Below the pieces are notes generated by a model. It was not told the DNA's origin. It ran no database searches and saw nothing but the letters and a program-made list of their open reading frames with translations. A stretch of DNA of 64,000 nucleotides, taken from IMG/VR virus record IMGVR_UViG_3300033068_001916. One strand, given 5' to 3'. Positions 11,061 to 42,146 of this stretch are shown piece by piece. Made by a program: the position numbers and the translations under genes. Numbering within the stretch: the stretch's first letter is position 1; every line of letters begins with the position of its first letter. Source of the DNA: a virus. Lineage: Duplodnaviria; Heunggongvirae; Uroviricota; Caudoviricetes.

Positions 11061-11092
11061 TCCTATCGATTTCTTTTAAAATTATACTTAAA

Positions 11093-17639: not shown

Positions 17640-18476
17640 ATGAAAAACTTTAGTCTTGGCGATCGTATGAAGGAATTCTACGAAGACCGTTTTAGATACT
17701 ATGTTCCACGCAGAACATACACATTAATCAGAATTGATGGAAAAGCTTTCCACACTTACACAAGGGGTTTGGAATCTCCGTTCGACGCAGGGTTAATCGT
17801 GGATATGAATGAAACCGCAGCTTACCTTTGTAAAAATATACAGGGAGCAAAATTTGGATACGTTCAATCCGACGAGATCAGTATATTGATCACGGATTTC
17901 GAGGAAAGAGACACACAGATGTGGTTCGATGGGAATTTACAAAAGATGGCTTCCGTTGCAGCTTCTATGGCGACCTCTAAATTCAACGAATTGAGAGTTG
18001 ACAGATACATCAGGGAAAAGTTTAATAGTGGGATTGAAACCATAACACCTTTGTGGATAGAAAATCTGAAAAGAGTTAAAAAAGCAGAGTTTGATGCGAG
18101 GGTATTTCAGATTCCACAGAAGAGCGAGGTTGAGAACTATTTTATATTCAGACAACAAGACGGAACTAGAAATTCGGTTCAATCAGTTGCTCAGAGTTTA
18201 TATTCACAGAGTGAATTAAACGGAAAGAAAGAAAAGGATATGCAGGAGATGATATTCCAGAAGGGAATTAATTGGAATGACTATCACTTCAGAGAGAAAA
18301 GAGGTGGAATTATCGCTAAAGTACCAACAATGGTTGAAGGTAGAGATGGTCAGGTTGAAAGACTTAAGTGGCAAATGATACCAACACCTATATTCACTCA
18401 GGAGAGGGAATTTATGGATCAGATGATTCCAGACTTCGTGATTAAAACGAAACACCAAGATGAAGTTGAAATATAA
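17640..18476 (+). CDS. thg1: tRNA-His guanylyltransferase Thg1-like protein (3'-5' polymerase that repairs tRNA 5' ends)
   Basis: RIDGKAFHTYTRGLESPFDAGLIVDMNETA ... FGYVQSDEISILITDF ... ASVAASMATSKF matches Thg1/TLP conserved blocks. Confidence 0.75.
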   Translation: MKNFSLGDRMKEFYEDRFRYYVPRRTYTLIRIDGKAFHTYTRGLESPFDAGLIVDMNETAAYLCKNIQGAKFGYVQSDEISILITDFEERDTQMWFDGNLQKMASVAASMATSKFNELRVDRYIREKFNSGIETITPLWIENLKRVKKAEFDARVFQIPQKSEVENYFIFRQQDGTRNSVQSVAQSLYSQSELNGKKEKDMQEMIFQKGINWNDYHFREKRGGIIAKVPTMVEGRDGQVERLKWQMIPTPIFTQEREFMDQMIPDFVIKTKHQDEVEI

Positions 18477-20307: not shown

Positions 20308-20530
20308 TGAGAACCACAAGAAAAAAAAGATAAAGAAGGAACTAAAGAAATGCATAGATTCGATTGATTATTTTCGAGAAAATTATATTGACGTGATAGA
20401 TCCACTATTATACGGGAAGGCATTTCCAAAAATTGAGGGCTTTGAGGGCAAGGTGATAATAACATCAACACCGCTAGGTAACAACCAATTTAAGGAACTT
20501 TGGGAAAAAAGCAAAAAAGATCCGGAATAA
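20294..20530 (+). CDS. hypothetical basic protein
   Basis: Start trimmed to the internal ATG of the listed 20096..20530; followed by a terminator hairpin. Confidence 0.4.
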   Translation: MGQYNENHKKKKIKKELKKCIDSIDYFRENYIDVIDPLLYGKAFPKIEGFEGKVIITSTPLGNNQFKELWEKSKKDPE

Positions 20531-20556
20531 TTTTTTTATTTCGGATCTTTTTTTTA
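20518..20556 (+). terminator. intrinsic terminator
   Basis: Stem agatccggaataa/ttatttcggatct followed by a T-run. Confidence 0.5.
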
Positions 20557-21336: not shown

Positions 21337-22242
21337 ATGATAATAAATCTTTCTGAACCGTGCAGCTACGGTATAAAATTTAAAGTCTCTAAATTTCCTG
21401 ACGGACAACAATCCATCACCATATTAGAGGGCGAAGTTCTCAAACATGAAATGTTTGAGAAAATGGAGCCAGTGGTAATAAAGTCAAGGATAACATCCTT
21501 CCTAGATCTTGAGCTAGTTATTTGTGCAAACAAAGCTCTTAGAGAGCTTGGAGTTAAAAAAACTTCCCTAGAGATATCATATCTATTGGGGGCAAGATCT
21601 GATAGAAAATTTGAAACAGGTAGCGTTAATTACATTAAAGAAGTACTTGCTCCTATTATCAATTCACAGAAATTCACCAGGGTAACAATACTTGATCCTC
21701 ATTCCGATGTGACAGAAGCTTGTATCAAGAAGTTCAAAAAATCAACACAAATCACTAGTGGACTGATAACATTTGTTCTTAGAGATTATTTCAATAACGG
21801 AACCATCGATTATTCAGGAATGCGTTTAATTTCTCCTGATGCAGGGGCTCTCAAAAAAGTTTATGATGTTGCCGAGTCTATCGGATACAGAGAAGAAATA
21901 GTTATAGCTTCCAAACACAGGGACGTTAAGACTGGAAAAATAACACATACTGATGTTCCAGTAAACGTGGATGATCTAGATATAGATTTCTTTATTCTAG
22001 ATGATATAATAGATGGAGGACGCACATTCATCGAGATTGCTAAAGCTCTAAGGGAAAAAGGAGCGACTGGTAAGATTTTCCTTGTCGCAACGCACGGAAT
22101 TTTTTCAGCTGGTTTAAAGCCATTAAATGAGAACTTCGATGGGATCTACACAACGAATAGCTATGTTGATATCAGCGATCCAGAATTCTCACTGAGAAAC
22201 GATAACGAGCTTCATAAACTTAAACAATTAAAAGTAATATAA
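21337..22242 (+). CDS. prs: ribose-phosphate pyrophosphokinase (PRPP synthetase)-like; may instead be an ADPR-PP synthetase of the NARP1 type
   Basis: PRPP-binding loop FFILDDIIDGGRTFIEIAKALREKGA versus vLVDDmIDTGGTl; N-terminal KFPDGQQSITILEGEV versus rFsDGEi.v.i.esvRG. Length is 301 aa. Confidence 0.65.
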   Translation: MIINLSEPCSYGIKFKVSKFPDGQQSITILEGEVLKHEMFEKMEPVVIKSRITSFLDLELVICANKALRELGVKKTSLEISYLLGARSDRKFETGSVNYIKEVLAPIINSQKFTRVTILDPHSDVTEACIKKFKKSTQITSGLITFVLRDYFNNGTIDYSGMRLISPDAGALKKVYDVAESIGYREEIVIASKHRDVKTGKITHTDVPVNVDDLDIDFFILDDIIDGGRTFIEIAKALREKGATGKIFLVATHGIFSAGLKPLNENFDGIYTTNSYVDISDPEFSLRNDNELHKLKQLKVI

Positions 22243-22244
22243 TC

Positions 22245-22457
22245 ATGATAGAAAAAGCAGCAGAGTCATTATTCGCTGGTATAGCGTTATTGGTTGTTTT
22301 AATTTGCTCATTGTGTTTGTGCATAGGTATTTTTTTAGGAAAAACCATATGGGACACCGGAGGGTTTATCGAATCTAAAACTGTAATACAGCCGATGATC
22401 AAATTAACAACAGACGGAAAAAAAATTGACACATTGTACGTTTATAAAATCAAATAA
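22245..22457 (+). CDS. small membrane protein
   Basis: TM-rich ORF. Confidence 0.4.
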   Translation: MIEKAAESLFAGIALLVVLICSLCLCIGIFLGKTIWDTGGFIESKTVIQPMIKLTTDGKKIDTLYVYKIK

Positions 22458-22731
22458 AATGAGAGGTATGTTAGAAATTATAATTATAGGATTGGTATTA
22501 ATAGCAGGATTCCTATTTATCGGAGATACTGAGATTTCATTCTCCCCCTTTAGCATCAAGATGAATGCCCCACTAAATGCAATAGGATGGTTTTTATTAT
22601 CAATCGGGGTTGCCTGTATATCTGCTAATTCGAGACAAAAAGGACACAAGGAGGGAACAAAAGAAACACTAGATAATATAGTTGTTCATATCAGCAAGAA
22701 TGGGACAACCAAATCAGAAGATCTTAAATAA
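22426..22731 (+). CDS. small membrane protein
   Basis: TM-rich ORF. Confidence 0.4.
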   Translation: MTHCTFIKSNKMRGMLEIIIIGLVLIAGFLFIGDTEISFSPFSIKMNAPLNAIGWFLLSIGVACISANSRQKGHKEGTKETLDNIVVHISKNGTTKSEDLK

Positions 22732-23330
22732 TGAGCAAAGGATCTAAAGAATGTATGTATTGCGATGGTGAATGTAACAAGTACTGTTTGCACGAGGATG
22801 CAAGGAACGAACCAATACATCCCACATACGTAGAAATTAAGGGAGATCTAATTAAACTTGCAATGAAAGGTAATTTTGATGTTATATGTCACGGAGTAAA
22901 TTGCTACGCCACAATGGGAGCGGGAATAGCACCTCAGATGGCTAAAGCATTTGGATGTGACAAATTCCCATTAGAAGGTCAACAACACAGAGGTGATTAC
23001 AATAAACTCGGACAGATTGATTGGAAAGTCAATACCTACACAGGAGGAACTAGCGAATTTGATTTTTTTGAATTTGATTTAGCTGTTGTTAACATATATT
23101 CACAATATGGATTTGGATTAAATCACGAAGGTGGAACAGCTAAACCTATCGATTATGATGCCCTCAGATTGGGACTCAGAAAAATAAACCACCAATTCAA
23201 AGGTAGACACGTAGGACTTCCACAGATTGGCTGTGGTTTGGCCGGCGGGGATTTTAATGTTGTTAGAAGAATAATCCAGGAGGAGTTGAAAGATTGTAAA
23301 GTAACTGTTGTAATATACGATAAAGAATAA
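22731..23330 (+). CDS. Macro-domain protein (ADP-ribose binding or hydrolase)
   Basis: GDLIKLAMKGNFDVICHGVNCYATMGAGIAPQMAKAFG matches the Macro motif D.ivNaaN..l..GgGva.ai..aaG. Confidence 0.6.
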   Translation: MSKGSKECMYCDGECNKYCLHEDARNEPIHPTYVEIKGDLIKLAMKGNFDVICHGVNCYATMGAGIAPQMAKAFGCDKFPLEGQQHRGDYNKLGQIDWKVNTYTGGTSEFDFFEFDLAVVNIYSQYGFGLNHEGGTAKPIDYDALRLGLRKINHQFKGRHVGLPQIGCGLAGGDFNVVRRIIQEELKDCKVTVVIYDKE

Positions 23331-23740
23331 TGAGGATAGTTTTCAAAAACAAGTATTCAGGAGACAAAGTAATCCGAGTGAATGAGAAATATCATTTTCT
23401 AGACGGAGACAAGGTTTCACCCGAAACGATCAGGAACGGTGTCATCGACAATGGTGAGGATTGGGAATTACTAGAACCAAGACGAGATCTTTATATAAAA
23501 TTAAAGAACGAAAGGGGAAAGGATTATTTTAGAAGTTTCGCTAGAGGAATCGAATACCATTCAGGGGACAGCATTACAATTGAAAGGAACATGTCATTCG
23601 GTGACGGGAGGAGGGATTTTTACATAAAGGACTTCTACATATCAGACAAACCAAATGAATCTGGTCTCTATGAGTTCATATATGCAAATACCACGTGCGG
23701 AAGAGACATACATCTTAGTAGCGTTATAATAAAACCATAA
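23330..23740 (+). CDS. hypothetical protein
   Basis: ORF. Confidence 0.45.
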   Translation: MRIVFKNKYSGDKVIRVNEKYHFLDGDKVSPETIRNGVIDNGEDWELLEPRRDLYIKLKNERGKDYFRSFARGIEYHSGDSITIERNMSFGDGRRDFYIKDFYISDKPNESGLYEFIYANTTCGRDIHLSSVIIKP

Positions 23741-23757
23741 TAAATAAAATATAATAT

Positions 23758-23961
23758 ATGTCAGTATTATTGAGCGAGGAAGAAGCGGAACAATTATTCG
23801 GAGAAATTGACAACGAGGGACTTAGTTACTGGGTTCAGCACTACGGTTACAAAGGTGAAGAAGACCTGAAATTAAAAGAACTTTGTGAGAAAGCCAAAGA
23901 AGCAATGAATGCTTTGGAGTCTCACATAGAAAAAATATTTGAAGAATACGAAATAGTATAA
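23758..23961 (+). CDS. hypothetical protein
   Basis: ORF. Confidence 0.4.
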   Translation: MSVLLSEEEAEQLFGEIDNEGLSYWVQHYGYKGEEDLKLKELCEKAKEAMNALESHIEKIFEEYEIV

Positions 23962-23963
23962 AA

Positions 23964-25040
23964 ATGGAAAAAAATAAACAGTTTTTAAAAGATTACTTAA
24001 ATGCATTTTCACCAGTTGGAAATGAAATCGAAGGCCAAAAGGTATGGGTTGACTATGTTAAGCCAATCGTTAATGAAATGAAAGTTGACGCATATGGAAC
24101 AGCATATGGTTTAATTAAAGGTTCGAATAGTGATAAAAAAGTGGTTCTGGAAGCACACTGTGACGAGATCTCATGGATTGTTACTGAAATTGAATCGAAC
24201 GGTATGGTGAGGGTTAAAACCAACGGAGGATCAGACAATATGATTGCACCATCGATGACAGTTATGGTTCATACACACGCAGGTAAAAAAGTACCTGGAG
24301 TTTTTGGATGGCCTGCTATTCACGTAAGAGAAAAAAGAGTTGAGATGGGTCCGGAAGTTCATGAACTTTGGATTGATCTTGGAGTTGATAGCTCAAAGAA
24401 AGTTTCAAAACTTGGAATTGAGGTAGGAAATTGTGTTACATTCGATCAAAAATTCTTTGAAATGGGCAAATACTACGTCGGTAGATCACTGGATAATAAG
24501 ATTGGTGGTTATATCATTGCAGAGGTTGCTAGGGAACTTAGAGAAGAAGGGACAATTCTCCCATTCGATCTTTATGTTGTTAATGCAATCCAGGAGGAAG
24601 TTGGTTTATTTGGTGCTAGATTAATTGCACAAACAATCAAGCCGGACATCGCATTGGTTCACGACGTTACGCACAACACAAACTCTCCTAAGATGAACAA
24701 GGCAAAATCTGGTGACATCAAGGGTGGTTCGGGTCCAGTTATCGAGTACTCGTCTCAGAATCACAAGGATCTAATTAATATAGTTAGAGATGTGGCTAAG
24801 GAGAAAGAGATACCATTGCAACTATCTGTTGGTTCTTATGGAAATGATACAGTGTCTTTCTTCTTAGAAAACGTACCTACTGTGATCGTAGCTAGTCCGT
24901 TAAAGTATATGCATACTACAATAGAGATGGTACATAAAGATGACGTATCGGCTGCAATACGGGTTTTTAAAGAGACGTTAAAAAAGTTGACCACTGGTAC
25001 CATAGTTACCATCAACGATCAAACACACAAATACGTATAA
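23964..25040 (+). CDS. M42-family metallo-aminopeptidase-like protein
   Basis: AHCDEISWIV ... SLDNKIGG resemble M42 (FrvX/YsdC) blocks; length is 358 aa. Confidence 0.45.
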   Translation: MEKNKQFLKDYLNAFSPVGNEIEGQKVWVDYVKPIVNEMKVDAYGTAYGLIKGSNSDKKVVLEAHCDEISWIVTEIESNGMVRVKTNGGSDNMIAPSMTVMVHTHAGKKVPGVFGWPAIHVREKRVEMGPEVHELWIDLGVDSSKKVSKLGIEVGNCVTFDQKFFEMGKYYVGRSLDNKIGGYIIAEVARELREEGTILPFDLYVVNAIQEEVGLFGARLIAQTIKPDIALVHDVTHNTNSPKMNKAKSGDIKGGSGPVIEYSSQNHKDLINIVRDVAKEKEIPLQLSVGSYGNDTVSFFLENVPTVIVASPLKYMHTTIEMVHKDDVSAAIRVFKETLKKLTTGTIVTINDQTHKYV

Positions 25041-25041
25041 T

Positions 25042-25290
25042 ATGGCAATATCACCAGAGTACCTGAATAAGGCCTTTATTAAGCAGGTCGATGCATTTGA
25101 AGTTAAATTGGATGAGGCACTAACCAAAAAATCTATAGCAAAGGGGGATACAATTAACCTGGATGCTCCCAGTGGCATGAGTGGAAAACATTTCGATTTA
25201 CTGAAAACCAGATACATCTCAGCCGGATGGTCCGATGTTAGATTGAATTCAGATCAGAGAGAAGGTACATGGATAACTTTTTATTATTAA
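25042..25290 (+). CDS. hypothetical protein
   Basis: ORF. Confidence 0.4.
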   Translation: MAISPEYLNKAFIKQVDAFEVKLDEALTKKSIAKGDTINLDAPSGMSGKHFDLLKTRYISAGWSDVRLNSDQREGTWITFYY

Positions 25291-25304
25291 TTTAATACTG
25301 GGTT

Positions 25305-25475
25305 ATGCCGAGAATAGAAATTAAGGATTCAAAATTAAGCTCAATTATGAAAAAATGCGAGTCCTTAAAATTGGATCCGAAAAAAGTCAAAATAGAAACC
25401 GCAATATTCGAGGATCTTTCTAATCCAGATGAATATTACACTAAACTATATTTGAGATACGATGATAAACAATAA
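25305..25475 (+). CDS. small hypothetical protein
   Basis: Unlisted 56-codon ORF in a gap; overlaps the next start. Confidence 0.3.
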   Translation: MPRIEIKDSKLSSIMKKCESLKLDPKKVKIETAIFEDLSNPDEYYTKLYLRYDDKQ

Positions 25476-26166
25476 GGAAGCAATAAAGGAGATAATAGAT
25501 TCTGGTGGGACAATAAGATTCCCATACAAGACAAATTTGAAGGATTGGTACTCAGAGATATCAATATTCAGATTTGATGATCGCTATCACGTCACACCAG
25601 GAACGAATTTCTATTCCTGGGATGGTGCAATAAGCTATTATTTCGGAATGATATTGGCACCGAAAAATGCTGCCTATGTTATAGAAAGACTCAAGAGAAG
25701 AGGAATCGTCTGTGATCTGGAGGATCCAGACGAAAGCTACCTAACTGAGTTTAAGAAAGAAAAGAAGAAGGTCTCCGAGGATTTCAAAAAATTGGACATC
25801 ATACACCAGAAGGTTGGGACAAGAGATGAAATGGAGGATGCTTTGAAAAAAATAATAGAAGGCGTCCAGGAGAATCAATTTCCATCATCGCTGTACAGCG
25901 ATCTTAGAACATTCTTAGATGTGTATTCTCTAAACCTTCCTCATGTTAGCGTCTCTTTCTGTTATTCCATTAATACTCAGGATAGCATTTTTAGGCATGG
26001 CGAGGAATTAAAATGTCTGACACCAGATACACTTAGGAAAGCAAAAGATTTGAGTATATTTCAAAATCCGGATGATGTAAAATATCTACACACTGAATTA
26101 TCCATCTCATATCAACCAAAGGAGGGTGGAGGTAAAATTTATAAAAGATACGAACTTAAAATATAA
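25462..26166 (+). CDS. hypothetical protein
   Basis: 234-aa ORF. Confidence 0.5.
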   Translation: MINNKEAIKEIIDSGGTIRFPYKTNLKDWYSEISIFRFDDRYHVTPGTNFYSWDGAISYYFGMILAPKNAAYVIERLKRRGIVCDLEDPDESYLTEFKKEKKKVSEDFKKLDIIHQKVGTRDEMEDALKKIIEGVQENQFPSSLYSDLRTFLDVYSLNLPHVSVSFCYSINTQDSIFRHGEELKCLTPDTLRKAKDLSIFQNPDDVKYLHTELSISYQPKEGGGKIYKRYELKI

Positions 26167-26172
26167 AAAAAA

Positions 26173-26652
26173 ATGAAAATAACAGATAAATACGTATTTT
26201 TCTGGAATGGAATTTACTCCCAATGGCACAAAGCAAATATGGTCATTGATAAAATAGAATATAATTCATGTGAGCAATACATGATGCACCAAAAAGCATT
26301 GTTATTTGATGACGAGGAAACTGCAGAATTAATCATGCAGGAGAAAAACCCAAGGGAACAAAAGAAATTTGGAAGAATGGTTAAGGGATTTGATAAATCC
26401 GTTTGGGAAAAGAATTGTCTAGCTATTGTATATGAAGGAAACCTATCCAAATTTTCACAGAATGATGGTTTAAAGAAAGAGATGTTATCAACTGGTAATA
26501 GGTTTTTTGTAGAAGCTTCACCATTTGATACAGTATGGGGAATAGGTATGGATGAGAATGCACAAGGAGTTGAGGATCCATCATATTGGCTAGGGCTTAA
26601 TTTATTAGGACAAGCATTAACACTCGTTAAAAATGAGCTTCGAGGATCTTAA
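26173..26652 (+). CDS. NADAR (YbiA/DUF1768) domain protein
   Basis: FFWNG.YSQWH ... EQYMMHQKALLFDD ... KFSQN..LKKEMLSTG...FVEASPFDTVWGIGMDE ... LGLNLLGQAL aligns along the E. coli YbiA/NADAR fold. Confidence 0.7.
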   Translation: MKITDKYVFFWNGIYSQWHKANMVIDKIEYNSCEQYMMHQKALLFDDEETAELIMQEKNPREQKKFGRMVKGFDKSVWEKNCLAIVYEGNLSKFSQNDGLKKEMLSTGNRFFVEASPFDTVWGIGMDENAQGVEDPSYWLGLNLLGQALTLVKNELRGS

Positions 26653-26962
26653 GAAACAGGCACTCCTGTTTGTTTACTGGTGTAACAAACTAAGAGAAGG
26701 TGGTTTTATAGAAGGAGGACCAGTCATAACAGAAAAAGGATTTGATTCGGCGATGGATCTCGTCGAATCAGGTGTTAAACTAGATGAAAAAATTGCTATA
26801 AAATGTGCAGATGAACTAAATGTTGACATTAGAGTTGTTGATCTTGTTATGGAAATGCAGAAGGTTGGTTATACAGAATTTATAGAATTAGCTAAAAAGC
26901 TTGAGGGAATGTCGGATAGCGACATGATTAAGGATATAATGGATAACATTAATAAAGAATAG
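26633..26962 (+). CDS. hypothetical protein
   Basis: ORF. Confidence 0.45.
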   Translation: MSFEDLKKQALLFVYWCNKLREGGFIEGGPVITEKGFDSAMDLVESGVKLDEKIAIKCADELNVDIRVVDLVMEMQKVGYTEFIELAKKLEGMSDSDMIKDIMDNINKE

Positions 26963-26964
26963 TT

Positions 26965-27744
26965 ATGGGATTGGACATTTATTTAAAAAGGTATGATGAT
27001 TTTAAAGCAACGAGGGAAGCTGAGAAGGAATATTCAGAGCTAACAGATAAGATCTGGGAGATCGGCGTCAAATATGACGATCTAACAGAGGAGCAAAAGG
27101 AATCATTTAGAGCACAGGATGCAGAAAATGCAAAAAGACTGGGGCTTGATAAATGTGGATGTGACGAGACCAATGTTGAATCGATTGAGATGCCACATCC
27201 GGATTATCCAGATCACTATTTTAAAATTGGATACTTTAGAAGCTCCTATAACGATAACGGAATTGAGAGAATCCTGAAAAATCTGGGTGTACCAACTTTA
27301 CATGACATATTCTCTGCTACTGGCGAAGATTATTACGTTCAGCCAAACTGGGAAACAGCATTGGTTAATGTTAATTCAGCAATAGAAAAACTTAAGGGAG
27401 AACCACCATACAGAATCAATGCTGTTGGCGCTAATATATTCTCGGAACCTGAGGTAAACTCCGCAGAGGATGCAATGAGGATTCTGAGAAGAAGATTGAG
27501 TGAGAGTGGAAAGGATTACAATTACTCCTGTTCCGAAGGGGAATTCATGTTTTCCGAACCAGCTAAGGTAATTGCATTCATTCCTGGATTTAACCACGTA
27601 TTTAGAAAAACCCCATGTGTTTATGTGGTAACAGAAAGTGACAATTCGTGGTACATCCAGGCGTTGGAGATAGTTAAATCTACTATTGAATATGTGTTAA
27701 CCAAGGATAAAAGAGAACAATATTATTTACACTGGAGCGGATAA
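26965..27744 (+). CDS. hypothetical protein
   Basis: 259-aa ORF. Confidence 0.5.
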   Translation: MGLDIYLKRYDDFKATREAEKEYSELTDKIWEIGVKYDDLTEEQKESFRAQDAENAKRLGLDKCGCDETNVESIEMPHPDYPDHYFKIGYFRSSYNDNGIERILKNLGVPTLHDIFSATGEDYYVQPNWETALVNVNSAIEKLKGEPPYRINAVGANIFSEPEVNSAEDAMRILRRRLSESGKDYNYSCSEGEFMFSEPAKVIAFIPGFNHVFRKTPCVYVVTESDNSWYIQALEIVKSTIEYVLTKDKREQYYLHWSG

Positions 27745-27746
27745 TC

Positions 27747-28322
27747 ATGAGACTAGAAGATACTAAAATAAATCCGGAAATGGAATCATTCATGGCATTC
27801 GAATTTCCGATAATTAGAAACGTGAGCGGAAAGACAATAGCTGATTCCTTAGAATCTATTACTCCAAAAGCTCCTGGAAAAATTAAGAAACAATATGAAA
27901 ACCATTGGGGAGAAACTGTTACTCAGTATGAAGGAAGCATTTTTAGCAATATTAAAAGCAATGGGTCTCACCTTATCTTTGGCGACAGAGGGCACGCCTA
28001 TGGCTCTGGTTATTACGTGGTTAACGAAAGGGATGAAATGGTTTATTCCGGCAGTGAAGAATATACTGAGCTTGTTGAGAAATGCTCTAAATACTGGGAA
28101 GCAATGGAGATTCTCCGCAGAAAATACAGGCTCCCAGAATACTCAGTTGAAAGAGGAAGGGGAGATCGTCTCTTTGTCAACGATAAAATCATCAAGGGAA
28201 TCATTATCCACCCAGGGTCATTCCGAGAAGGTATTAGGTCATTCTTAGATTTTGCTTTTGGGTTGATAGATGCTGAAATTGAATCAGGAAGAATAAAACC
28301 GGGGGAATTTGGAATAGAATGA
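27747..28322 (+). CDS. hypothetical protein
   Basis: ORF. Confidence 0.5.
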   Translation: MRLEDTKINPEMESFMAFEFPIIRNVSGKTIADSLESITPKAPGKIKKQYENHWGETVTQYEGSIFSNIKSNGSHLIFGDRGHAYGSGYYVVNERDEMVYSGSEEYTELVEKCSKYWEAMEILRRKYRLPEYSVERGRGDRLFVNDKIIKGIIIHPGSFREGIRSFLDFAFGLIDAEIESGRIKPGEFGIE

Positions 28323-28663
28323 GAAAGCCAGATGAAATAAGAAAGGAGATAGCTGAACTTGAGGCAGAGTTATCTGAATCGATAATGGAGAGCGAATGGA
28401 AGCTTCTATGTAAATCCGATGTGGAAGGTGATAGCATAGGATCTTTCAATTTAAAAAAAGCAAGAACAATATTAAAGTATCTATACAATGGATATCGTCT
28501 TCAGTTAAGACACGAAGCTCTTGGTGTATATGAGGTTTATATGAATCCACAGAGAAATAGAATTCTATTAAACGCAGAGAGTGAATCAGTTAACGAAGAA
28601 TCCATCATGGGATTCATAGTGTGGCATTCAGGAGATTGGTATGTTTTTAATTCAGAATTATGA
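28319..28663 (+). CDS. hypothetical protein
   Basis: ORF. Confidence 0.45.
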   Translation: MRKPDEIRKEIAELEAELSESIMESEWKLLCKSDVEGDSIGSFNLKKARTILKYLYNGYRLQLRHEALGVYEVYMNPQRNRILLNAESESVNEESIMGFIVWHSGDWYVFNSEL

Positions 28664-28989
28664 CCAGAGGATATGCAAAAAAATTAGCAGAAAGGGTAAC
28701 AAACCAAGAGCTAAGAGATATGTTTTATAATGCACAAAGACACCTCATTCAATGGGGAGGATGGGATAAGGCAAGCAAAAATAACAAATCAATATCTGTA
28801 GCTTGTGCATTTAATATACTCTCATGCGGAGTTGACAATGAAGATTTTCTATCTAAAAAATTGAATGATATTGTTAAGTTCAATATGATTAGAGAATTTG
28901 GCGAGCATTTACCGGATTACATACCGGAACAAAAAGAGGTAAAAAAGGATATAAAGATTATACATCACGAACCTAAATTTTTAAAATAA
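28660..28989 (+). CDS. hypothetical protein
   Basis: ORF. Confidence 0.45.
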   Translation: MTRGYAKKLAERVTNQELRDMFYNAQRHLIQWGGWDKASKNNKSISVACAFNILSCGVDNEDFLSKKLNDIVKFNMIREFGEHLPDYIPEQKEVKKDIKIIHHEPKFLK

Positions 28990-29225
28990 TGACATCAAAG
29001 GATTTCTGTTATTGGATTCAGGGCTTTTTCGAGCTATCTGAATCTGAACAATTAACACCTAGACAGGTGGAGATAATTAAGAACCATTTAAAATTGGTTT
29101 TCTATCACGAGATAGATCCTTCATATTCAGACGATCCCGAAATACAGGATGAAATGCAGGCAATTCATGACGGAAAACCTGAGAGGAAAAGAAATAACCC
29201 AGGAAACATATTAGTAAAATGCTAA
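28989..29225 (+). CDS. hypothetical protein
   Basis: ORF. Confidence 0.4.
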   Translation: MTSKDFCYWIQGFFELSESEQLTPRQVEIIKNHLKLVFYHEIDPSYSDDPEIQDEMQAIHDGKPERKRNNPGNILVKC

Positions 29226-29236
29226 AATAGATCGAT

Positions 29237-29440
29237 ATGATTAAAGTAATTTGGACACCAGAAAAGAAAGAAGCTGCAATTGATAAATTGACTAAATATT
29301 TCGAAAAACATGGGATTGGGGAAATGATTATGCAGAGCGACGATGGACTTATAGAAGCACCAGAGGTTCTTTCTGACATAGCTGATGATATCCTAATTGA
29401 TAACGAGGGTATAATTTTTGAAGACGATGACGATGAATAA
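29237..29440 (+). CDS. hypothetical acidic protein
   Basis: ORF. Confidence 0.4.
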   Translation: MIKVIWTPEKKEAAIDKLTKYFEKHGIGEMIMQSDDGLIEAPEVLSDIADDILIDNEGIIFEDDDDE

Positions 29441-29693
29441 GCTTCAAACATTTGTAGTTTGGTTGGATGGGTTTCTCTCAGCTACAGGAGACAATTTAAC
29501 AATAGATCAAACAAGAACAGTTAAAAAGAAATTAAATGATCTTTTTGAACATGAAGCAGAACCACCAAAAAAGGCAAATCCTACATTAGCTGATCTCGGA
29601 AAAGAACACAATTTCGAAGTTAACCCAGGATTTCCAGGTGAAACTAATGGATTCCCAGGAAGGGACGAAGAAGGTGTTCTCTATAGATGCTAA
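29418..29693 (+). CDS. hypothetical protein
   Basis: ORF. Confidence 0.4.
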   Translation: MKTMTMNKLQTFVVWLDGFLSATGDNLTIDQTRTVKKKLNDLFEHEAEPPKKANPTLADLGKEHNFEVNPGFPGETNGFPGRDEEGVLYRC

Positions 29694-29992
29694 GGGGTCT
29701 TATTAAAAAGGATTGCGATAAATGGTATGTTGTTTCATGTTGTGGAAAATGTAATGGAATAGATGAGGTATGCCATAAATCGCTACATCAGATACACGAA
29801 TTAGACGAAAAAGATATCGAACTCATATATGAATATTCCGGAAGGAACGATTCGGATTTATGGGTGATGTATACACTCGAACCATTCAATACAGGACATC
29901 CTGCATATACAAATTATGCAAGAATTTCGATTGAGGATAAACCCCCGGTCTTTATGACACTTAGTGAATTAGATAATTTAATAGATTTTTAA
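29687..29992 (+). CDS. hypothetical Cys-rich protein
   Basis: ORF. Confidence 0.4.
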   Translation: MLRGLIKKDCDKWYVVSCCGKCNGIDEVCHKSLHQIHELDEKDIELIYEYSGRNDSDLWVMYTLEPFNTGHPAYTNYARISIEDKPPVFMTLSELDNLIDF

Positions 29993-30325
29993 ATGAGTAA
30001 AATAATTTATCTGGCATCGCCATATAGCAATCCGGACGATGACAAGAGACACAGAAACTTTGAGAAGGTATCAAAAATAGCTGCAGATTTATGTGCGGAA
30101 GGTCACGTAGCCTTCTCACCCATAACATACGGTCACACGCTACTCAATTACAAATTGATGCCAACCGACTGGCCATTCTGGAAAAACTTCTGTTTATCAT
30201 TTTTAGATAAATGTGATGAGCTACATATCTGCAAGATTGAAGGTTGGAATCAATCAAGAGGAGTTGCAGAAGAGATAGAATATGCTATCCAGAAGGGGAT
30301 ACAAATAAAATATATTGATTGTTAA
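29993..30325 (+). CDS. nucleoside 2-deoxyribosyltransferase-like (DUF1937/Rcl-like) protein
   Basis: N-terminal IIYLASPYS resembles the YLAGP motif of the NDT/Rcl fold; an acidic residue follows in EEIEYAI. Confidence 0.45.
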   Translation: MSKIIYLASPYSNPDDDKRHRNFEKVSKIAADLCAEGHVAFSPITYGHTLLNYKLMPTDWPFWKNFCLSFLDKCDELHICKIEGWNQSRGVAEEIEYAIQKGIQIKYIDC

Positions 30326-30332
30326 TTAAAAA

Positions 30333-30364
30333 TTTCCGAATAAAATTTTTTTATTCGGAAATTT
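30333..30364 (+). terminator. intrinsic terminator whose 3' stem arm is the promoter upstream element
   Basis: Perfect 13-bp inverted repeat tttccgaataaaa/ttttattcggaaa with a T-rich loop. Confidence 0.5.
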
Positions 30365-30376
30365 TGTTTATATTTG
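30346..30376 (+). promoter_or_regulatory. conserved phage promoter
   Basis: tttttttattcggaaa ... TATATTTG at 30369-30376. Confidence 0.55.
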
Positions 30377-30394
30377 CCTCATAATTAAAAGGAA

Positions 30395-30958
30395 ATGAAA
30401 AAAGCAATACTTTTTATTGGCCTACCTGGATCAGGGAAAACAACTATAGTAAATAGGGATTATTCCGAGGAATATACCGTAGTTTCTGCTGACAATATTA
30501 AACAGGGACATCCCGACTACGATCCTAATGATCCTGAACCACTTCATCAATGGAGCGTAAAGGAAGCAGAGAATCAAATGAATATTCTATCCGACCTTGG
30601 ATATTCCATCTGCATGGATTCTGGAGGTGTTAATAACTCATACTCTCTTAGAATAATCTCTATGCTAAAAACCAAAGGTTATCATATAACATTAGTTTAT
30701 GTTGAAACACCTCTGGAAATATGCTTAGAAAGAAACAAAAAAAGGGAAAGAAAAGTTCCAGAGCAAGCTATAATAGAGAAATCTAAAATGCTAGAGTCAT
30801 GTCTGGAAAAACAAAAATCAGTAGCTGATGATTATTTACATATACAATATAGAGAGAGTAAAAAATATTCATTCCCTTCTTTATCTATAGCAGGTAAATA
30901 CATCAGATCGATAATTCATCCAAGAAACAGGGAATTAATTTATAATCAGCAAATATAA
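30395..30958 (+). CDS. polynucleotide 5'-kinase (T4 Pnk kinase-domain-like P-loop kinase)
   Basis: AILFIGLPGSGKTTIVNRDY versus T4 Pnk IILTIGCPGSGKSTWAREF; ERNKKRERKVPEQAI versus KRNSKRGTKAVPIDV. Confidence 0.55.
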   Translation: MKKAILFIGLPGSGKTTIVNRDYSEEYTVVSADNIKQGHPDYDPNDPEPLHQWSVKEAENQMNILSDLGYSICMDSGGVNNSYSLRIISMLKTKGYHITLVYVETPLEICLERNKKRERKVPEQAIIEKSKMLESCLEKQKSVADDYLHIQYRESKKYSFPSLSIAGKYIRSIIHPRNRELIYNQQI

Positions 30959-30960
30959 AC

Positions 30961-31353
30961 ATGTCAACAACAATTTCTTTAATTTATTCACTATTATTAG
31001 CAATAGGAGGTTTCATTTTCATTTTTGGACTTTCCACATTTCTAACACTCAGAAAAAACTATTCATCATATAAATTAACATATGATGCTCTATTAAATGG
31101 CGATTATGTCTACAACGAATACCTTAGCAAGGGAAGCGATATCATCTATTTTAGAAAACCAGGTGATGATAAATTCAATGATGATGAAATAATATTCTTC
31201 GAAAATGGAAATGGATCAATAAAGCTACTTGGTAAAAATAAATACATTCATGATGCATCTTTCACGTATCTGGATCCATATACTCTTTATTGGAAAAAGA
31301 AGATTAGAAAAATAATGAATCAAAAACAAAACAATAATATAAAATCACTTTAA
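30961..31353 (+). CDS. membrane-anchored hypothetical protein
   Basis: N-terminal TM segment; paralogous to the next gene (YIHDASFTYLDPYTLYWKKK versus YIHSGILSMDPYTFYYRRK). Confidence 0.5.
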   Translation: MSTTISLIYSLLLAIGGFIFIFGLSTFLTLRKNYSSYKLTYDALLNGDYVYNEYLSKGSDIIYFRKPGDDKFNDDEIIFFENGNGSIKLLGKNKYIHDASFTYLDPYTLYWKKKIRKIMNQKQNNNIKSL

Positions 31354-31354
31354 T

Positions 31355-31822
31355 ATGGCATTAGTAACAGCAATAATAATCAGCACAGCATTTACATTTC
31401 TATTAATGGTCCTAATAGGATCATTATTGAATTGTAGAAAGTTCCCTAAATACAAAGAAAATTACGATCTTCTTACCAGCGGTGAATATAAATTCAACTG
31501 GAAATCATCTGGATTCTATTACTTCTCAAGAAAAGATCTTGTTGGTAAATTTTCAAGCATCTCAAAATTCTCAAACTTATCTTTTGTTTTTATGTACAAT
31601 GATGGTGACGAGAACGGGGATATAGGTTCAATAAGATTACCGGGTGATGATATGAATTATATCCACAGTGGAATACTTTCCATGGATCCCTACACCTTTT
31701 ACTACAGAAGAAAATTCATAAAATGGTTCAAAGATAATAAATCAACATTCATTGATAGAACCCCGAATTTTGAAATGACCGACGAAGAATTAGAAGAAAT
31801 CGAACAAAACTTAAACAATTAA
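31355..31822 (+). CDS. membrane-anchored hypothetical protein (paralog of 30961..31353)
   Basis: Shared N-terminal TM segment and C-terminal motif. Confidence 0.5.
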   Translation: MALVTAIIISTAFTFLLMVLIGSLLNCRKFPKYKENYDLLTSGEYKFNWKSSGFYYFSRKDLVGKFSSISKFSNLSFVFMYNDGDENGDIGSIRLPGDDMNYIHSGILSMDPYTFYYRRKFIKWFKDNKSTFIDRTPNFEMTDEELEEIEQNLNN

Positions 31823-31827
31823 TAAAA

Positions 31828-33498
31828 ATGGAAAAATTAAACAAGACTTTTAAAATCAATCCCCTTTACGAATCGGATGGTTATAAGGTTGGACACAAAG
31901 CAATGTTAGCTGAAAATACATCGGTTGAATATTGGACTTGGATCCCTAGAAGCATAAAATATATGCACCCATCGATTGATGGCATTATGTCAGCCGGTGA
32001 ACAATTGGTATGGAGATACATTCACAGTAGTTTCCAGGAGTTATTCTTTGACCAACCAGTTGAAATGGCAGAAAAATTTGGTAGAGATATGTCCAAGTAT
32101 TTAATGATGGATTATGATGCTAATCACTTCTCTGAATTACATAAACTTGGTTATCTTCCGGTTAGAATCAAGGCTATACCAGAAGGGACATTCACAAAAC
32201 CAAACATTCCACACATGACAGGGATCAACACTGTTGATGGCTATGCTTGGCTTGGGCTTTATTTGGAAACGTTGGTATCTAAATTGGCTTGGCAATTACC
32301 TACAGCTGCTACTATTGCTCACAGATTCAAACAGAATGCTGTTGAGTGGGTTACCAAAACAGATCCAGAAAATCTTTGGTTAGCTGATTTTATGTGTCAC
32401 GATTTCCACAGCAGAGGTGGAAATCCATTCACATCAATCGCAGTTGGACTAGGACACGCAATGAGTAACTCAGGTAGTGACACATTAAACGTTATCCCAG
32501 CATCGAGATACTACTATGATTTCGACGAAAACGAAGTTCCAGTTTATAGCGTTAATGCTTCTGAACATAGTGTGACATGTACAGGTATTTTCTTCTACGA
32601 GAAAAAATTAAGAGGCGGTTTATTAAACCATGAAATTCTAAAATACTACCAATCTGACGCTACATCTGAAGGATCGGTTGACGCTCCAGATTACTTGGCA
32701 ATTGCGGAATTGCTTAATCTTCGTGATTGGCTTAAAAAATTCCCTAAAGGTATTCTTTCAGTGGTTTCGGACACAATGGATTTATGGAAAGTTATCACAC
32801 ATATTCTACCAAGGCTTAAAGAAGAAATTCTTGCTAGAGATGGTAAATTGGTAATTCGTCCTGATTCAGGAGATCCAGTAGATATTATCTGTGGTAAATA
32901 TCCAACATTTGGAGATGGATTTACATGCGAGGATAAAGGTGTTATTGAATTACTTTGGGATCTTTTCGGAGGCGAAGAAACTTCAACAGGGTACAAAAGA
33001 TTAGATTCACACATCGGAGCAATCTATGGGGATTCGATCAATCTAGAAAGACAAATTGCTATTTATACAAGATTAGCAGATAAAGGTTTTGCATCTACCA
33101 ATATCGTGGTTGGAGTTGGATCTTACACATATGTTATGTTAACAAGAGACTCTGCTGGATACGCAGCTAAAGGAGCTTGGTTCTCAACTAAAGAATTTGC
33201 AGGTGTTGATCCAGACGGTCAAACTGATTATACTATCACTGAGTACAATATCTATAAAGATCCCGTAACCGATAATGGTACTAAAAAATCATTAAAAGGT
33301 TTCTGCCAGGTATTCAATAACAGACCAGATGCTTTACCTTATGAGATTAAGTATGACGGGAAAGATCAATTGGAGGTAAATACCGAATGTACTAAAGAAC
33401 AGGAAGATGGTGGATTATTACAGCTAATCTATGAGGATGGCAAATTCCACAATCAGGCGAGTCTAACTGAGATTAGAGAACGTTTGAAAGTTCAATAA
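31828..33498 (+). CDS. nadV: nicotinamide phosphoribosyltransferase (NAMPT/NadV family; could be a NARP1 Namat-type enzyme)
   Basis: DGYKVGH versus DSYKVTH; HDFHSRGGNPFTS..SGSDTL versus HDFGYRG....KGTDTV; LVIRPDSGDP is the classic PRTase block. Length is 556 aa. Confidence 0.8.
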   Translation: MEKLNKTFKINPLYESDGYKVGHKAMLAENTSVEYWTWIPRSIKYMHPSIDGIMSAGEQLVWRYIHSSFQELFFDQPVEMAEKFGRDMSKYLMMDYDANHFSELHKLGYLPVRIKAIPEGTFTKPNIPHMTGINTVDGYAWLGLYLETLVSKLAWQLPTAATIAHRFKQNAVEWVTKTDPENLWLADFMCHDFHSRGGNPFTSIAVGLGHAMSNSGSDTLNVIPASRYYYDFDENEVPVYSVNASEHSVTCTGIFFYEKKLRGGLLNHEILKYYQSDATSEGSVDAPDYLAIAELLNLRDWLKKFPKGILSVVSDTMDLWKVITHILPRLKEEILARDGKLVIRPDSGDPVDIICGKYPTFGDGFTCEDKGVIELLWDLFGGEETSTGYKRLDSHIGAIYGDSINLERQIAIYTRLADKGFASTNIVVGVGSYTYVMLTRDSAGYAAKGAWFSTKEFAGVDPDGQTDYTITEYNIYKDPVTDNGTKKSLKGFCQVFNNRPDALPYEIKYDGKDQLEVNTECTKEQEDGGLLQLIYEDGKFHNQASLTEIRERLKVQ

Positions 33499-33521
33499 TA
33501 CATCGAAATATAAATTAAAAA

Positions 33522-33551
33522 AATCCTGAATATATCATTCAGGATTTTTTT
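33522..33551 (+). terminator. intrinsic terminator
   Basis: Hairpin aatcctgaa-tatatcat-tcaggatt followed by T8. Confidence 0.65.
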
Positions 33552-36313: not shown

Positions 36314-36337
36314 TAAAAAAATCCGGATTTATCCGGA
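36306..36337 (+). terminator. intrinsic terminator
   Basis: Hairpin atccggatt-tatccggat followed by T9. Confidence 0.65.
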
Positions 36338-36344
36338 TTTTTTT

Positions 36345-38429: not shown

Positions 38430-38963
38430 ATGATAACACTCATAAAACCTGATAACGAAACGTTATCACCATCGGATGATACTATATCCATCTTTCTGGG
38501 AGGAACCATAGAAATGGGGAATTCAGATGATTGGCAAACCGAAATCTATAATAGACTAAAAGATATAGACGAGACCATTGGGTTTTTCGATAATATAAAT
38601 CTTTTTAATCCAAGAAGAGACTCGTGGGATTCATCATGGGTACAGGAGCAATCCAATCCACAATTCAATGGACAGGTTAACTGGGAACTTGATAATATTG
38701 AGGATTCCAATATAATCTTTTTTAATATTCTACCAGAATCAAAAAGTCCAATAACACTTATGGAGATAGGATTATGCAAGGATAAAGGTGCTTCTGTTAT
38801 AGTCTGCTGTCCTGATGGTTTCTATAGAAAGGGTAATGTTGATGTAGTTTGCTCAAGATATGGTATGCAGCAATATAAAGATATTGATTCAGCATTTGGT
38901 GCTTTACTTACTGAGATAAATAGAGCAGGTAGAAGCAAAAATGTAATAACAAAAAATAAATAA
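38430..38963 (+). CDS. nucleoside 2-deoxyribosyltransferase-like protein
   Basis: ISIFLGGTIEMG...W matches the NDT-like FLGG block. Confidence 0.4.
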   Translation: MITLIKPDNETLSPSDDTISIFLGGTIEMGNSDDWQTEIYNRLKDIDETIGFFDNINLFNPRRDSWDSSWVQEQSNPQFNGQVNWELDNIEDSNIIFFNILPESKSPITLMEIGLCKDKGASVIVCCPDGFYRKGNVDVVCSRYGMQQYKDIDSAFGALLTEINRAGRSKNVITKNK

Positions 38964-39865: not shown

Positions 39866-40341
39866 TGGTAAGCTTATATTCATCAATCCTTTGGGATAAG
39901 ATTGGTCACAATCCTAACGAATTTAAAATACATGACAAGGAATTTCCTGAAATATTAGAGGAATTCAAAAAATACATAGAGGATAAAGGTTCTGAACAAT
40001 TCATTAATGATGTTAGAGAACTTGACGGTATAGTTGGTGACATCACCGAATTTAGTTACTACGATGGACCAATATATCAACATAAGACACACACCCACGA
40101 AAGCAATATAAAGGATCCCGAGGATTGGGAGGAAGGAAAAAGAAACGGTTATAAGGAGATGAAACTCGTTTTCCACGAATCCGAGGTTCTACCTTCTGTT
40201 TTAAGAATGATGATGGAATTTCTTGCACCCGACGAGGTATCTTTCCTTGCCGATGTACATAGGGTTTATTATAAAAATAAAAAAGCTGTAGCAGTCGAGG
40301 ATTGTCAAATGAAGCCATCTGCTGATGTGAATGATGAATAA
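39865..40341 (+). CDS. hypothetical protein
   Basis: ORF. Confidence 0.5.
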   Translation: MVSLYSSILWDKIGHNPNEFKIHDKEFPEILEEFKKYIEDKGSEQFINDVRELDGIVGDITEFSYYDGPIYQHKTHTHESNIKDPEDWEEGKRNGYKEMKLVFHESEVLPSVLRMMMEFLAPDEVSFLADVHRVYYKNKKAVAVEDCQMKPSADVNDE

Positions 40342-40897
40342 TCAATATATTCTACATTCAGGTGGAGCGATTGGAGCAGACACCACTTGGGAAATCATAG
40401 GTAGACGTTTTGGGCTAACTGAATTTAACCATTATTTTATAGAGGGTTATAAAACACCAAGGGGTAATGCATCAATAAGGATGACGGAAGATCTCAAAAA
40501 AGTAATAGATTCAGATTTAATAAAAGCAAATAAGAATCTAAAAAGAAGTTATCCGACTAGAAATTCATACGTTAATAGCTTACTTCGAAGAAATTGGTTT
40601 CAGGTTGCAAATTCAAATTCAGTTTTTGCAATATCAAGAATAGAAAACAATATGGTAAGTGGTGGAACAGGTTGGGCAGTTCAAATGGCAATAGACAAAG
40701 GAATCAACGTTTTTGTTTTCTGTCAATTTGCAAGAAAATGGTTCTTATATTCATCTGGATTTTGGATTGAAACAGAAACACCAACGCTAACCAATAATTT
40801 TGCAGGTATAGGTACCAGGGAGATCGATCAAAACGGAATACTAGCGATAGAAGACGTCTATAATAAAACATTCAATAAAAAAAAAGCTGAAGAGTAA
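40331..40897 (+). CDS. SLOG-superfamily (DprA/Smf-like Rossmann) protein
   Basis: LHSGGAIGADTTWEIIG versus DprA SGlArGiDaaAHrgAL; later SGGTGWAVQMAIDKGINVFVF. Confidence 0.45.
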   Translation: MMNNQYILHSGGAIGADTTWEIIGRRFGLTEFNHYFIEGYKTPRGNASIRMTEDLKKVIDSDLIKANKNLKRSYPTRNSYVNSLLRRNWFQVANSNSVFAISRIENNMVSGGTGWAVQMAIDKGINVFVFCQFARKWFLYSSGFWIETETPTLTNNFAGIGTREIDQNGILAIEDVYNKTFNKKKAEE

Positions 40898-41916: not shown

Positions 41917-42146
41917 TTATGAAACACATAGAAATATACGAGAACTATGAGCCAAAAACGCTTATAGGTAATACCACACTGGAGCAATTTAAGAATCTCA
42001 GAAGAGGCGACAAAATAAAATACCTAGGAACACCTTACATAGTGGAGGAGCCAGGGGATTTTTTAATATCTGCTAGAAGCGAGGAAGATGGTGAAATCAT
42101 AGAGATAAACTACAATATGTTCAAATCAAAGGGATTTATAAGTTAA
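41895..42146 (+). CDS. hypothetical protein
   Basis: ORF. Confidence 0.4.
   Translation: MERYNLLIMKHIEIYENYEPKTLIGNTTLEQFKNLRRGDKIKYLGTPYIVEEPGDFLISARSEEDGEIIEINYNMFKSKGFIS

Follow-up and report, generated by a model that had tools for sequence, protein, structure and literature searches.

A 64,000-nucleotide stretch of Caudoviricetes DNA (IMG/VR record IMGVR_UViG_3300033068_001916; hereafter the window) very probably encodes a NARP1-AP-type pathway for reconstituting nicotinamide adenine dinucleotide (NAD+), with its genes dispersed. NARP1 pairs the enzymes Adps and Namat and is known from phages Bas63, SpbetaL1 and FADO (Osterman et al., bioRxiv 10.1101/2024.02.11.579819; Namat structure and clamp in PMC12774641), while NARP1-AP is the Adps-Adpp-Namat system of Vibrio phage Gary (bioRxiv 10.64898/2026.01.28.702374). 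An earlier note on this DNA had proposed a six-gene NAD+/ADP-ribose set and had preferred the NARP1 route to classical salvage. All six open reading frames (ORFs) are present where it placed them, and its preference is borne out by clade placement, reciprocal profile scores, clamp motifs, a window free of recognisable nicotinamide mononucleotide adenylyltransferase (NMNAT), and adjacency of the orthologues in related phages. The composition of the set changes: its Adps, Macro, NADAR and Namat genes are kept, its AAA_28 and SLOG genes are dropped, and a PF15891 gene that had been overlooked joins as a candidate. The five genes are:

21337-22242, plus strand: Adps-type enzyme (predicted ADP-ribose pyrophosphokinase, Prs fold), 301 aa; assigned by profile scores, neighbour-joining (NJ) tree and synteny
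22731-23330, plus strand: Macro-domain protein, Adpp-like, candidate ADP-ribose-1''-phosphate phosphatase, 199 aa; 37% identical to Gary Adpp
26173-26652, plus strand: NADAR-domain protein (YbiA-type), candidate ADP-ribosyl N-glycosidase, 159 aa; Pfam E 6e-49
31828-33498, plus strand: Namat-type enzyme (predicted nicotinamide ADP-ribose transferase), 556 aa; assigned by structure matches, NJ tree and motifs
38430-38963, plus strand: PF15891 (Nuc_deoxyri_tr2) nucleoside 2-deoxyribosyltransferase-like protein, candidate fifth member, 177 aa; Pfam E 5.6e-29

Judged by its sequence, the product of 31828-33498 is Namat-type and not Nampt. It is a NAMPT homologue, as the earlier note had it (NAPRTase family, Pfam E 6e-22), with the blocks DGYKVGH, HDFHSRG, SGSDTL and VIRPDSGDP starting at residues 17, 191, 215 and 342. 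A tblastn search with this protein, covering 2,020 phage records, gave bimodal identities: ~31-51% for most listed phages with a neighbouring Prs-like gene, and mostly 25-28% for the KVP40/T4 type (26% for the KVP40-like enzyme). The Namat side of an NJ tree, including the window protein, was split from KVP40-like and T4-like Nampt with 100% bootstrap. The KVP40-like Nampt passes the Nampt equivalog model NF006629 (cut-off 405 bits) at 514 bits, but the window protein fails it at 356; phrog_448 is common to Nampt and Namat. The best solved-structure matches, at 4e-94, were 9w5w and 9w5x, which are, we assume, the crystal structures reported for SpbetaL1 Namat (PMC12774641); Xanthomonas (Xcc) Nampt followed at 8e-34 and human NAMPT at ~1e-22.

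The catalytic residues F193, R196, D218, H247, R344 and D346 align with F189, R192, D215, the catalytic His, R306 and D308 of SpbetaL1, and three signatures are of the Namat type: GSYTY not GGGLL, IYGDSI not IQGDG, and ASEHSV not AREHST. The clamp is formed by a loop, P40-R-S-I-K44-Y45, and a helix, 431-GSYTYVMLTRD-441. The loop PRSIKY aligns with PRSNKY of FADO and Staph1N, the Nampt loop (SRGGKF) being shorter; the clamp loop of Namat is marked by a stacking residue, either Arg or one that comes after Lys/Tyr, and the rule is a Lys followed by a stacking aromatic (PMC12774641, also the source of the motif definitions). The helix consensus is GS[FY]TYQ[YF]NTRD for Namat and GGGLLQ..[TDN]RD for Nampt, and helix position 3 of the window protein is Tyr, an aromatic, as in Namat. 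Among 55 distinct Namat sequences taken from loci with Adps, 10 have Met at clamp position 7, so Met-7 is a recurrent natural variant, which we read as probably tolerated; the Val-Met-Leu clamp of the window's lineage might tune donor specificity.

The product of 21337-22242 is Adps-type and distinct from cellular Prs, its pyrophosphokinase activity being predicted. Its Prs fold, which the earlier note had recognised, is supported by Pribosyl_synth (E 2.6e-7) and by TIGR01251 (E 1e-27, though under the cut-off of that model); the Pribosyltran_N domain typical of cellular Prs was not found in it by Pfam. Against TIGR01251, the curated cellular Prs model with a cut-off of 113 bits, the window protein scored 96.5 bits and E. 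coli Prs 423, while Adps proteins scored 96.5 (FADO), 99.9 (Gary/GRLPWR), 139 (FelixO1), 66 (Zakai) and 70.5 (Staph1N). Conversely, an Adps-only hidden Markov model (HMM) built from those five gave 173 bits for the window protein versus 96 for E. coli Prs. An NJ tree nested the window protein among Namat-linked Adps; its cellular outgroups were gammaproteobacterial only, the E. coli Prs protein search having returned only proteins at least 86% identical, the named ones all from Gammaproteobacteria. This tree is weakly rooted, and the reciprocal profile scores are therefore weighed more heavily. Pairwise BLAST was ambiguous (E. coli Prs 65 bits, FADO Adps 59 bits), and PHROG was dropped as a discriminator, phrog_619 giving E. 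coli Prs 193 bits and the window protein 204.

The catalytic features of Adps are retained: K193 in the SKHRD catalytic loop, the D-P-H motif at D120, and the DD...GG.T loop, which is the DDIIDGGRT reported before, at residues 222-230 of the 301-aa product. In the alignment FADO K168 is the counterpart of K193 in the conserved K-H-R loop. We take K193 to be the position of the published K162A in SpbetaL1, whose Adps sequence was absent from the alignment. The FADO pair has been validated through deletion, and the Gary operon, whose DNA is 100% identical to that of GRLPWR, biochemically (bioRxiv 10.1101/2024.02.11.579819; bioRxiv 10.64898/2026.01.28.702374).

Two side observations touch Adps. 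(i) In a 314 kb relative (JGI contig Ga0574186_000026, our locus L024) a SIR2-family gene at 10936-11664 directly follows Adps, in a position taken in the window by small ORFs and the Macro gene, so that a sirtuin sits beside an enzyme predicted to consume ADP-ribose (ADPR). (ii) The first ~220 of the 547 positions of phrog_12872 match Adps and ~220-536 match Namat, a layout that suggests the existence of natural Adps-Namat fusion proteins.

Synteny was examined in 80 IMG/VR loci bearing an Adps of the window's subclade (46-88% identity). A Namat-type gene accompanies Adps in 72 of them, invariably on the same strand; where the flanks reach the full 10 kb, the figure is 34 of 36. The gap between the two has a median of 1.1 kb and is at most 3 kb in 59 of the 72; just five loci, the window's two closest relatives among them, have more than 5 kb. 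The window's own gap is 9,586 bp (22242 to 31828), matching the separation of about 10 kb that the earlier note had found unlike published NARP1 loci. It holds 24 ORFs of at least 50 aa, most without a link to NAD, and is conserved in relatives of 119-434 kb. Given that the gaps of the related loci form a continuum from 0 to 9.3 kb and that the closest relatives share the spacing, the 9.6 kb separation is real, lineage-conserved and at the far tail of a continuum, with the association unbroken.

Compact versions of the locus exist in both gene orders. Namat precedes Adps in L003 and follows it in L005, and the pair lies close together in L009 and in Leptolyngbya phage Lbo-JY46. Locus L004 reads Adps-Macro-Namat, the exact order of the Gary NARP1-AP operon. 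Locus L041 (9962-14070), from IMG/VR record IMGVR_UViG_3300031758_000021, packs all five genes into 4.1 kb of one strand, each abutting or overlapping the next, in the order of the window (Adps, Macro, NADAR, Namat, PF15891) and with proteins 47-69% identical to the window's. All five occur in 11 of the 80 loci, eight of these in window order, while in the window they span 17.6 kb. As part of the explanation that we hold to be very probable, the genes of the module would have been pulled apart through insertion of unrelated genes.

The Macro protein is read with moderate confidence as the window's Adpp. Its Pfam score of 17 bits is below the threshold of 22, but the domain named in the earlier note is firm by PHROG 335 (4e-42) and by a profile search against solved macro domains, which matched BT1257 (2e-16), TARG1 (1e-10), Poa1p (2e-5), DarG (4e-4) and a Streptomyces macrodomain. 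With the Adpp of Vibrio phage Gary/GRLPWR it has 37% identity (E 4e-22) and PHROG 335 in common, and an alignment of seven sequences including Gary Adpp finds every invariant column kept. Macro genes occur in 36 of the 80 loci and immediately follow Adps in many relatives. In the window the Macro gene is the third ORF after Adps, two small ORFs intervening, which puts it narrowly outside the published 'within two genes' criterion if both small ORFs are real genes. The earlier description as a general remover or binder of ADP-ribose was right in fold class, and a specific phosphatase is the better reading; the substrate is unreadable from sequence. A single-sequence AlphaFold model of the protein was discarded (predicted local distance difference test, pLDDT, 39).

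The Macro protein also has an N-terminal Cys-rich extension of ~35 aa (22731-22835; C-x2-C-x3-C-x3-C), common to close relatives and to L025 and missing from Gary Adpp; it may be a small zinc-binding module.

A consensus scan for hairpins found putative terminators that would divide the region:

20513-20553, plus strand: terminator-like hairpin, 18-bp stem with an A-run and a T-run, shortly before the gene block beginning at 20579
30329-30365, plus strand: terminator-like hairpin, 17-bp stem, located in the 70 bp that separate the genes at 29993-30325 and 30395-30958
33517-33551, no strand assigned: palindromic terminator-like hairpin, 16-bp stem with A/T-run flanks, 19 bp past the Namat stop codon

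Their positions suggest that Adps, Macro and NADAR lie in one transcription unit and Namat in the next: 20513-20553 would be the start boundary of the former, and 30329-30365 its boundary with the Namat unit. A sigma-70 promoter scan found fewer sites than in shuffles and was uninformative. A fourth long hairpin lies at 36315-36344. All four (stems of 13-18 bp, with A/T runs) fall in the scarce intergenic gaps, and TCCGGA is the core of two of them; the set has the look of a terminator family, flanked in some members by runs on both sides, that divides the region into units. At the head of the putative Namat unit stands an AAA_33/Zeta-toxin-like P-loop kinase gene (30395-30958). Lbo-JY46 has a homologue (L001, 9726-10253; 41% identity) 1.7 kb upstream of its Namat gene, and in mycobacteriophage Zakai a polynucleotide kinase gene comes immediately after Namat (L016, 4051-4977), so a kinase may be recurrently associated with Namat.

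The earlier report of a missing NMNAT holds across the 64 kb. A Pfam scan of the 113 ORFs covering the window detected no CTP_transf_like, Nudix or PnuC family, the motif xPxHxGH is absent from the six-frame translation, and phmmer over the window ORFs found nothing NadR-like. tblastn with E. coli NadR gave weak matches only (best E 0.14, over the P-loop of an AAA_28 protein), with the NMNAT domain unmatched in the window.

The pathway would run as follows. Host NADases (Thoeris, DSR, SIR2-HerA and similar) would cut NAD+ to ADP-ribose and nicotinamide, RES-type enzymes yielding ADPR-1''-phosphate as product. The Macro protein (22731-23330) would convert ADPR-1''-phosphate to ADPR, from which Adps (21337-22242) would make ADPR-pyrophosphate with ATP, and Namat (31828-33498) would join ADPR-pyrophosphate to nicotinamide, giving NAD+ directly, without an NMNAT. 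In the least supported step, NADAR and PF15891 would act as fourth and fifth members, turning other NAD-derived products into ADPR or nicotinamide, for example NADAR acting on guanine ADP-ribose and PF15891 on some N-glycoside. The analysis establishes which families and clades the proteins belong to, that their motifs are conserved, and that the gene order recurs in relatives; the enzyme activities, the transcription units and a role against host defence are all predictions drawn from homology and genomic neighbourhood.

The NADAR protein is firmly of the YbiA family (NCBIfam TIGR02464, 142 bits, above the cut-off of 73.7). Of the 80 loci, 17 have a NADAR gene near Adps, and in 11 of those 17 it stands between Adps and Namat; in L041 NADAR abuts Macro and Namat with start and stop codons abutting or overlapping. 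The earlier note had seen NADAR as a separate layer of defence; the domain stands, and its location inside compact NARP1 clusters of relatives makes it a possible feeder, so that NADAR may feed the NARP1 pathway rather than form an independent layer. The PF15891 protein, whose nearest solved structure is an uncharacterised protein (4mcj, 2e-27), is encoded no more than 10 kb from Adps in 43 of the 80 loci by a homologous gene, the commonest accessory gene of the clade (Macro, 36). Of the 41 loci with both this gene and Namat, 24 have the two at most 1.5 kb apart, and in several it is wedged between Adps and Namat (homologues at 13600-14070 in L041 and 4246-4755 in L076). Among deposited phages the family is rare, with 46 records, many from jumbo phages; in Lak-B6, the only phage for which positions were compared, it lies ~75 kb from the Namat gene. 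It is conceivable, though we hold it only tentatively, that NARP1 forms the centre of a module of five genes (Adps, Adpp, NADAR, Namat, PF15891) in which NADAR and PF15891 are undescribed feeder enzymes, with ADP-ribosylated bases, cyclic or base-exchanged ADPR derivatives, nicotinamide mononucleotide (NMN) or nicotinamide riboside as equally tentative substrates. The idea parallels the recently shown roles of Adpp and RyDEP. Within the literature searched, we found no paper linking PF15891 or NADAR to NARP1, and NADAR near phage NadV or NadM is mentioned in general terms only (PMC9503650).

Several points weigh against a NARP1-AP assignment. The core pair is 9.6 kb apart and probably split between two transcription units by the hairpins, and 97% of Adps adjoin Namat in the defining study (bioRxiv 10.1101/2024.02.11.579819). 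PHROG families mix Adps with Prs and Namat with Nampt, and the Adps tree, with cellular outgroups drawn only from Gammaproteobacteria, is weak alone. The clamp helix has Met and not the adenine-contacting aromatic at position 7, and Val and not Gln/Asn at position 6; Namat also keeps activity with phosphoribosyl pyrophosphate (PRPP) in vitro (PMC12774641), and a shifted donor preference is therefore possible. The NMNAT search covered 64 kb, out of a genome that measures roughly 430 kb. For the Macro protein, the closest solved relatives include the de-ADP-ribosylases TARG1 and DarG, which makes the phosphatase role uncertain, and PHROG 335 Macro proteins occur in 2,587 phage records, often distant from NARP1 genes.

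Some of these points would suit classical, NARP2-like salvage, where the Prs-like enzyme would supply PRPP, the NAMPT-like enzyme would make NMN, and host NadD/NadR or an unseen phage NMNAT would complete NAD+. Both proteins do belong to the Prs and NAMPT superfamilies, Namat enzymes still make NMN from PRPP in vitro (PMC12774641; bioRxiv 10.1101/2024.02.11.579819), the Met at clamp position 7 is non-aromatic, and ~85% of the genome lies beyond the window. We nevertheless consider this route improbable. By HMM and tree, the Prs-like protein neither scores nor clusters as housekeeping Prs, lying under the Prs cut-off and scoring like validated Adps, and the NAMPT-like protein is not canonical NadV, being placed in the Namat clade with 100% bootstrap and failing the Nampt cut-off that the KVP40-like enzyme passes. 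Ordinary salvage, which the earlier note had set against the NARP1 route, thus finds neither a housekeeping-type enzyme nor an NMNAT in the 64 kb. In the defining study, moreover, 94% of Nampt-type phages carry Nmnat and none carries both pathways (bioRxiv 10.1101/2024.02.11.579819). That the genes are functionally unrelated neighbours in a large genome, their pairing at 10 kb meaningless, is less probable still. The 24 ORFs between the core genes, most without a link to NAD, and the frequency of NADAR, Macro and SLOG genes in jumbo phages (PMC9503650) are what such a coincidence would lead one to expect, but it is already contradicted by the co-occurrence of both clades on the same strand in 72 of 80 loci, the continuous gaps of 0-9.3 kb and the conserved five-gene order.

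A stronger challenge concerns the accessory genes. Macro and NADAR could be independent anti-toxin enzymes (DarG/TARG1-like and AdfN-like) that strip ADP-ribose from phage DNA or proteins, with no metabolic tie to Adps and Namat, their co-location reflecting a general early or anti-defence region; we think this rather unlikely. The Macro profile is nearer to BT1257 and TARG1 than to Poa1p and also matches DarG, and its homologues in cultured phages are often far from NARP1 genes. In vitro, all NADAR types tested strip guanine of its ADP-ribose, and DarTG1 is overcome by phage NADARs (PMC11125620, PMC11257639). Unrelated auxiliary genes, besides, are plentiful in the region. On the other hand, the Macro protein resembles a validated Adpp at 37% identity and directly follows Adps in many relatives, and NADAR lies between Adps and Namat in most loci where it is near Adps, with abutting or overlapping codons in L041. 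The two roles are also compatible, since de-ADP-ribosylation frees ADPR, the substrate of Adps. A dispersed NARP1-AP-type pathway remains our reading of the window.

Two members of the earlier set are left out of it, and one further gene had been overlooked:

42143-42742, minus strand: AAA_28 protein, 199 aa; AAA_28 E 2.5e-14
40331-40897: SLOG/DprA-like protein, no Pfam match; PHROG 768, 2e-16
29993-30325: second nucleoside 2-deoxyribosyltransferase-like protein; Pfam DUF1937/DUF4406, PHROG 355 'nucleoside 2-deoxyribosyltransferase'

The first had been called a NadR-type kinase. Its AAA_28 family is sound, but its likeness to NadR is limited to the P-loop (pairwise E 0.003; TIGR01526 15.7 bits, cut-off 341), and a role as ribosylnicotinamide kinase or NARP3 component was rejected, as unsupported, the protein having P-loop likeness only, with neither an NMNAT domain nor a solved-structure match, and no PnuC being found in the window. 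It is not shown to be a module member either, a homologue lying near Adps in one of 80 loci. The same frequency, one in 80, applies to the SLOG/DprA-like protein, whose family assignment stands, which had no solved-structure matches, and which likewise is not shown to belong. The gene at 29993-30325 lies between NADAR and Namat and has homologues near Adps in 11 of the 80 related loci.

The source phage is without a close cultured relative, as judged by a megablast of the 12 kb region against deposited phages, which gave no matches; its closest deposited phage proteins are those of Leptolyngbya phage Lbo-JY46 and Tenacibaculum phage PTm1. Related IMG/VR contigs of 430 kb (IMGVR_UViG_3300034116_002156), 434 kb and 119 kb carry both core enzymes, 83-90% identical and in the same order as the window, which is thus assigned to an uncultivated giant phage. 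The window has a G+C content of ~36% and densely packed plus-strand ORFs. The Pfam scan identified auxiliary families of large phages (SmpB, Thg1, an RNA-repair HAD domain, M42 and M28 peptidases, an SPFH protein), a gp23-like capsid-fold protein and a Laminin_G_3 protein.

Several further observations concern RNA-related and structural genes. SmpB, which is the partner protein of tmRNA, is encoded at 2094-2558 and a Thg1-like tRNA-His guanylyltransferase at 17640-18476, with HAD_SAK_2 RNA-repair and CHC2 zinc-finger domains at ~12.6-14 kb; in relatives L025 and L026 a Thg1 gene stands between Adps and Namat. Three matches to the Rfam tRNA model, at 7721-7779 (59 nt), 7981-8104 (124 nt) and 53040-53170 (131 nt), are confined to two ORF-poor stretches. 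ARAGORN found no tRNA or tmRNA in the whole window, and the three may be tRNA genes that are degenerate or hold an intron, or else structured RNAs of another kind. Toward the end of the window (60000-64000) G+C rises to 45-47%, and the DNA is repeat-rich, with long ORFs on both strands whose translations are highly repetitive (P/E/V/L-rich on the minus strand, Q/V/L/E-rich in ORFs of either strand). Such translations hint at a structural gene rich in repeats, possibly collagen-like, that follows the Laminin_G_3 protein (58084-59730).

Few outcomes of bacterial anti-phage immunity are commoner than NAD+ depletion, against which NARP1 is the main answer known from phages. Accessory enzymes that widen NARP1 recycling were reported only in 2026, namely Adpp for ADPR-1''-phosphate and RyDEP for cyclic ADPR signals. 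The window and its relatives add two candidates with clear operon evidence, NADAR (17 of 80 loci) and PF15891 (43 of 80, above Macro). Annotation rules demanding adjacency of Adps and Namat miss the pathway in giant phages, where the module can extend over 17.6 kb. Should the accessory roles fail to be confirmed, the locus would be an ordinary, though scattered, case of NARP1-AP.

Among known systems, the window resembles NARP1 in both enzyme clades, the catalytic residues, the Namat-type clamp loop and the aromatic at helix position 3, as well as in having no NMNAT found in the 64-kb window and in the adjacency of the orthologues in related phages. It differs in the distance between the core genes (9.6 kb with 24 ORFs between, probably in separate transcription units), in a clamp helix with Val-6, Met-7 and Leu-8 against the consensus, and in a Namat of 556 aa with insertions, against about 490 aa. 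The likeness to NARP1-AP lies in a same-PHROG Macro protein, 37% identical to Gary Adpp and encoded downstream of Adps, and in the identical gene order of L004; the two small ORFs between Adps and Macro, the Cys-rich extension of ~35 aa and a phosphatase role that is as yet a prediction set it apart. With NARP2 of Vibrio phage KVP40 (Nampt plus Nmnat/Nudix) it shares a NAMPT-superfamily enzyme that would restore NAD+, but the window enzyme is outside the Nampt clade and no Nmnat/Nudix was found in the window. Neither component of NARP3, a PnuC-like transporter and a bifunctional NadR-like enzyme (PMC13464706), was found in the window. Like AdfN and the phage NADARs that counter DarTG1 (PMC11257639; PMC11125620), the window has a stand-alone phage NADAR domain; AdfN belongs to the T4 gp30.3 cluster, marked by a His in the last strand, while for this one TIGR02464 points to the YbiA type, and in its clade it occurs in a NARP1 cluster. 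RyDEP-NARP1 of mycobacteriophage DyoEdafos (bioRxiv 10.64898/2026.05.28.727677) is a precedent for an accessory enzyme inserted in the locus that turns an immune product into ADPR; an RyR-domain protein was undetected in the window by Pfam scans, and the candidates for such a place are NADAR and PF15891. The core biology, that of NARP1-AP, is thus already known, and what the window and its relatives add is the extreme dispersal of the genes, a lineage-specific clamp variant, and NADAR and PF15891 as recurrent NARP1 operon partners in the clade.

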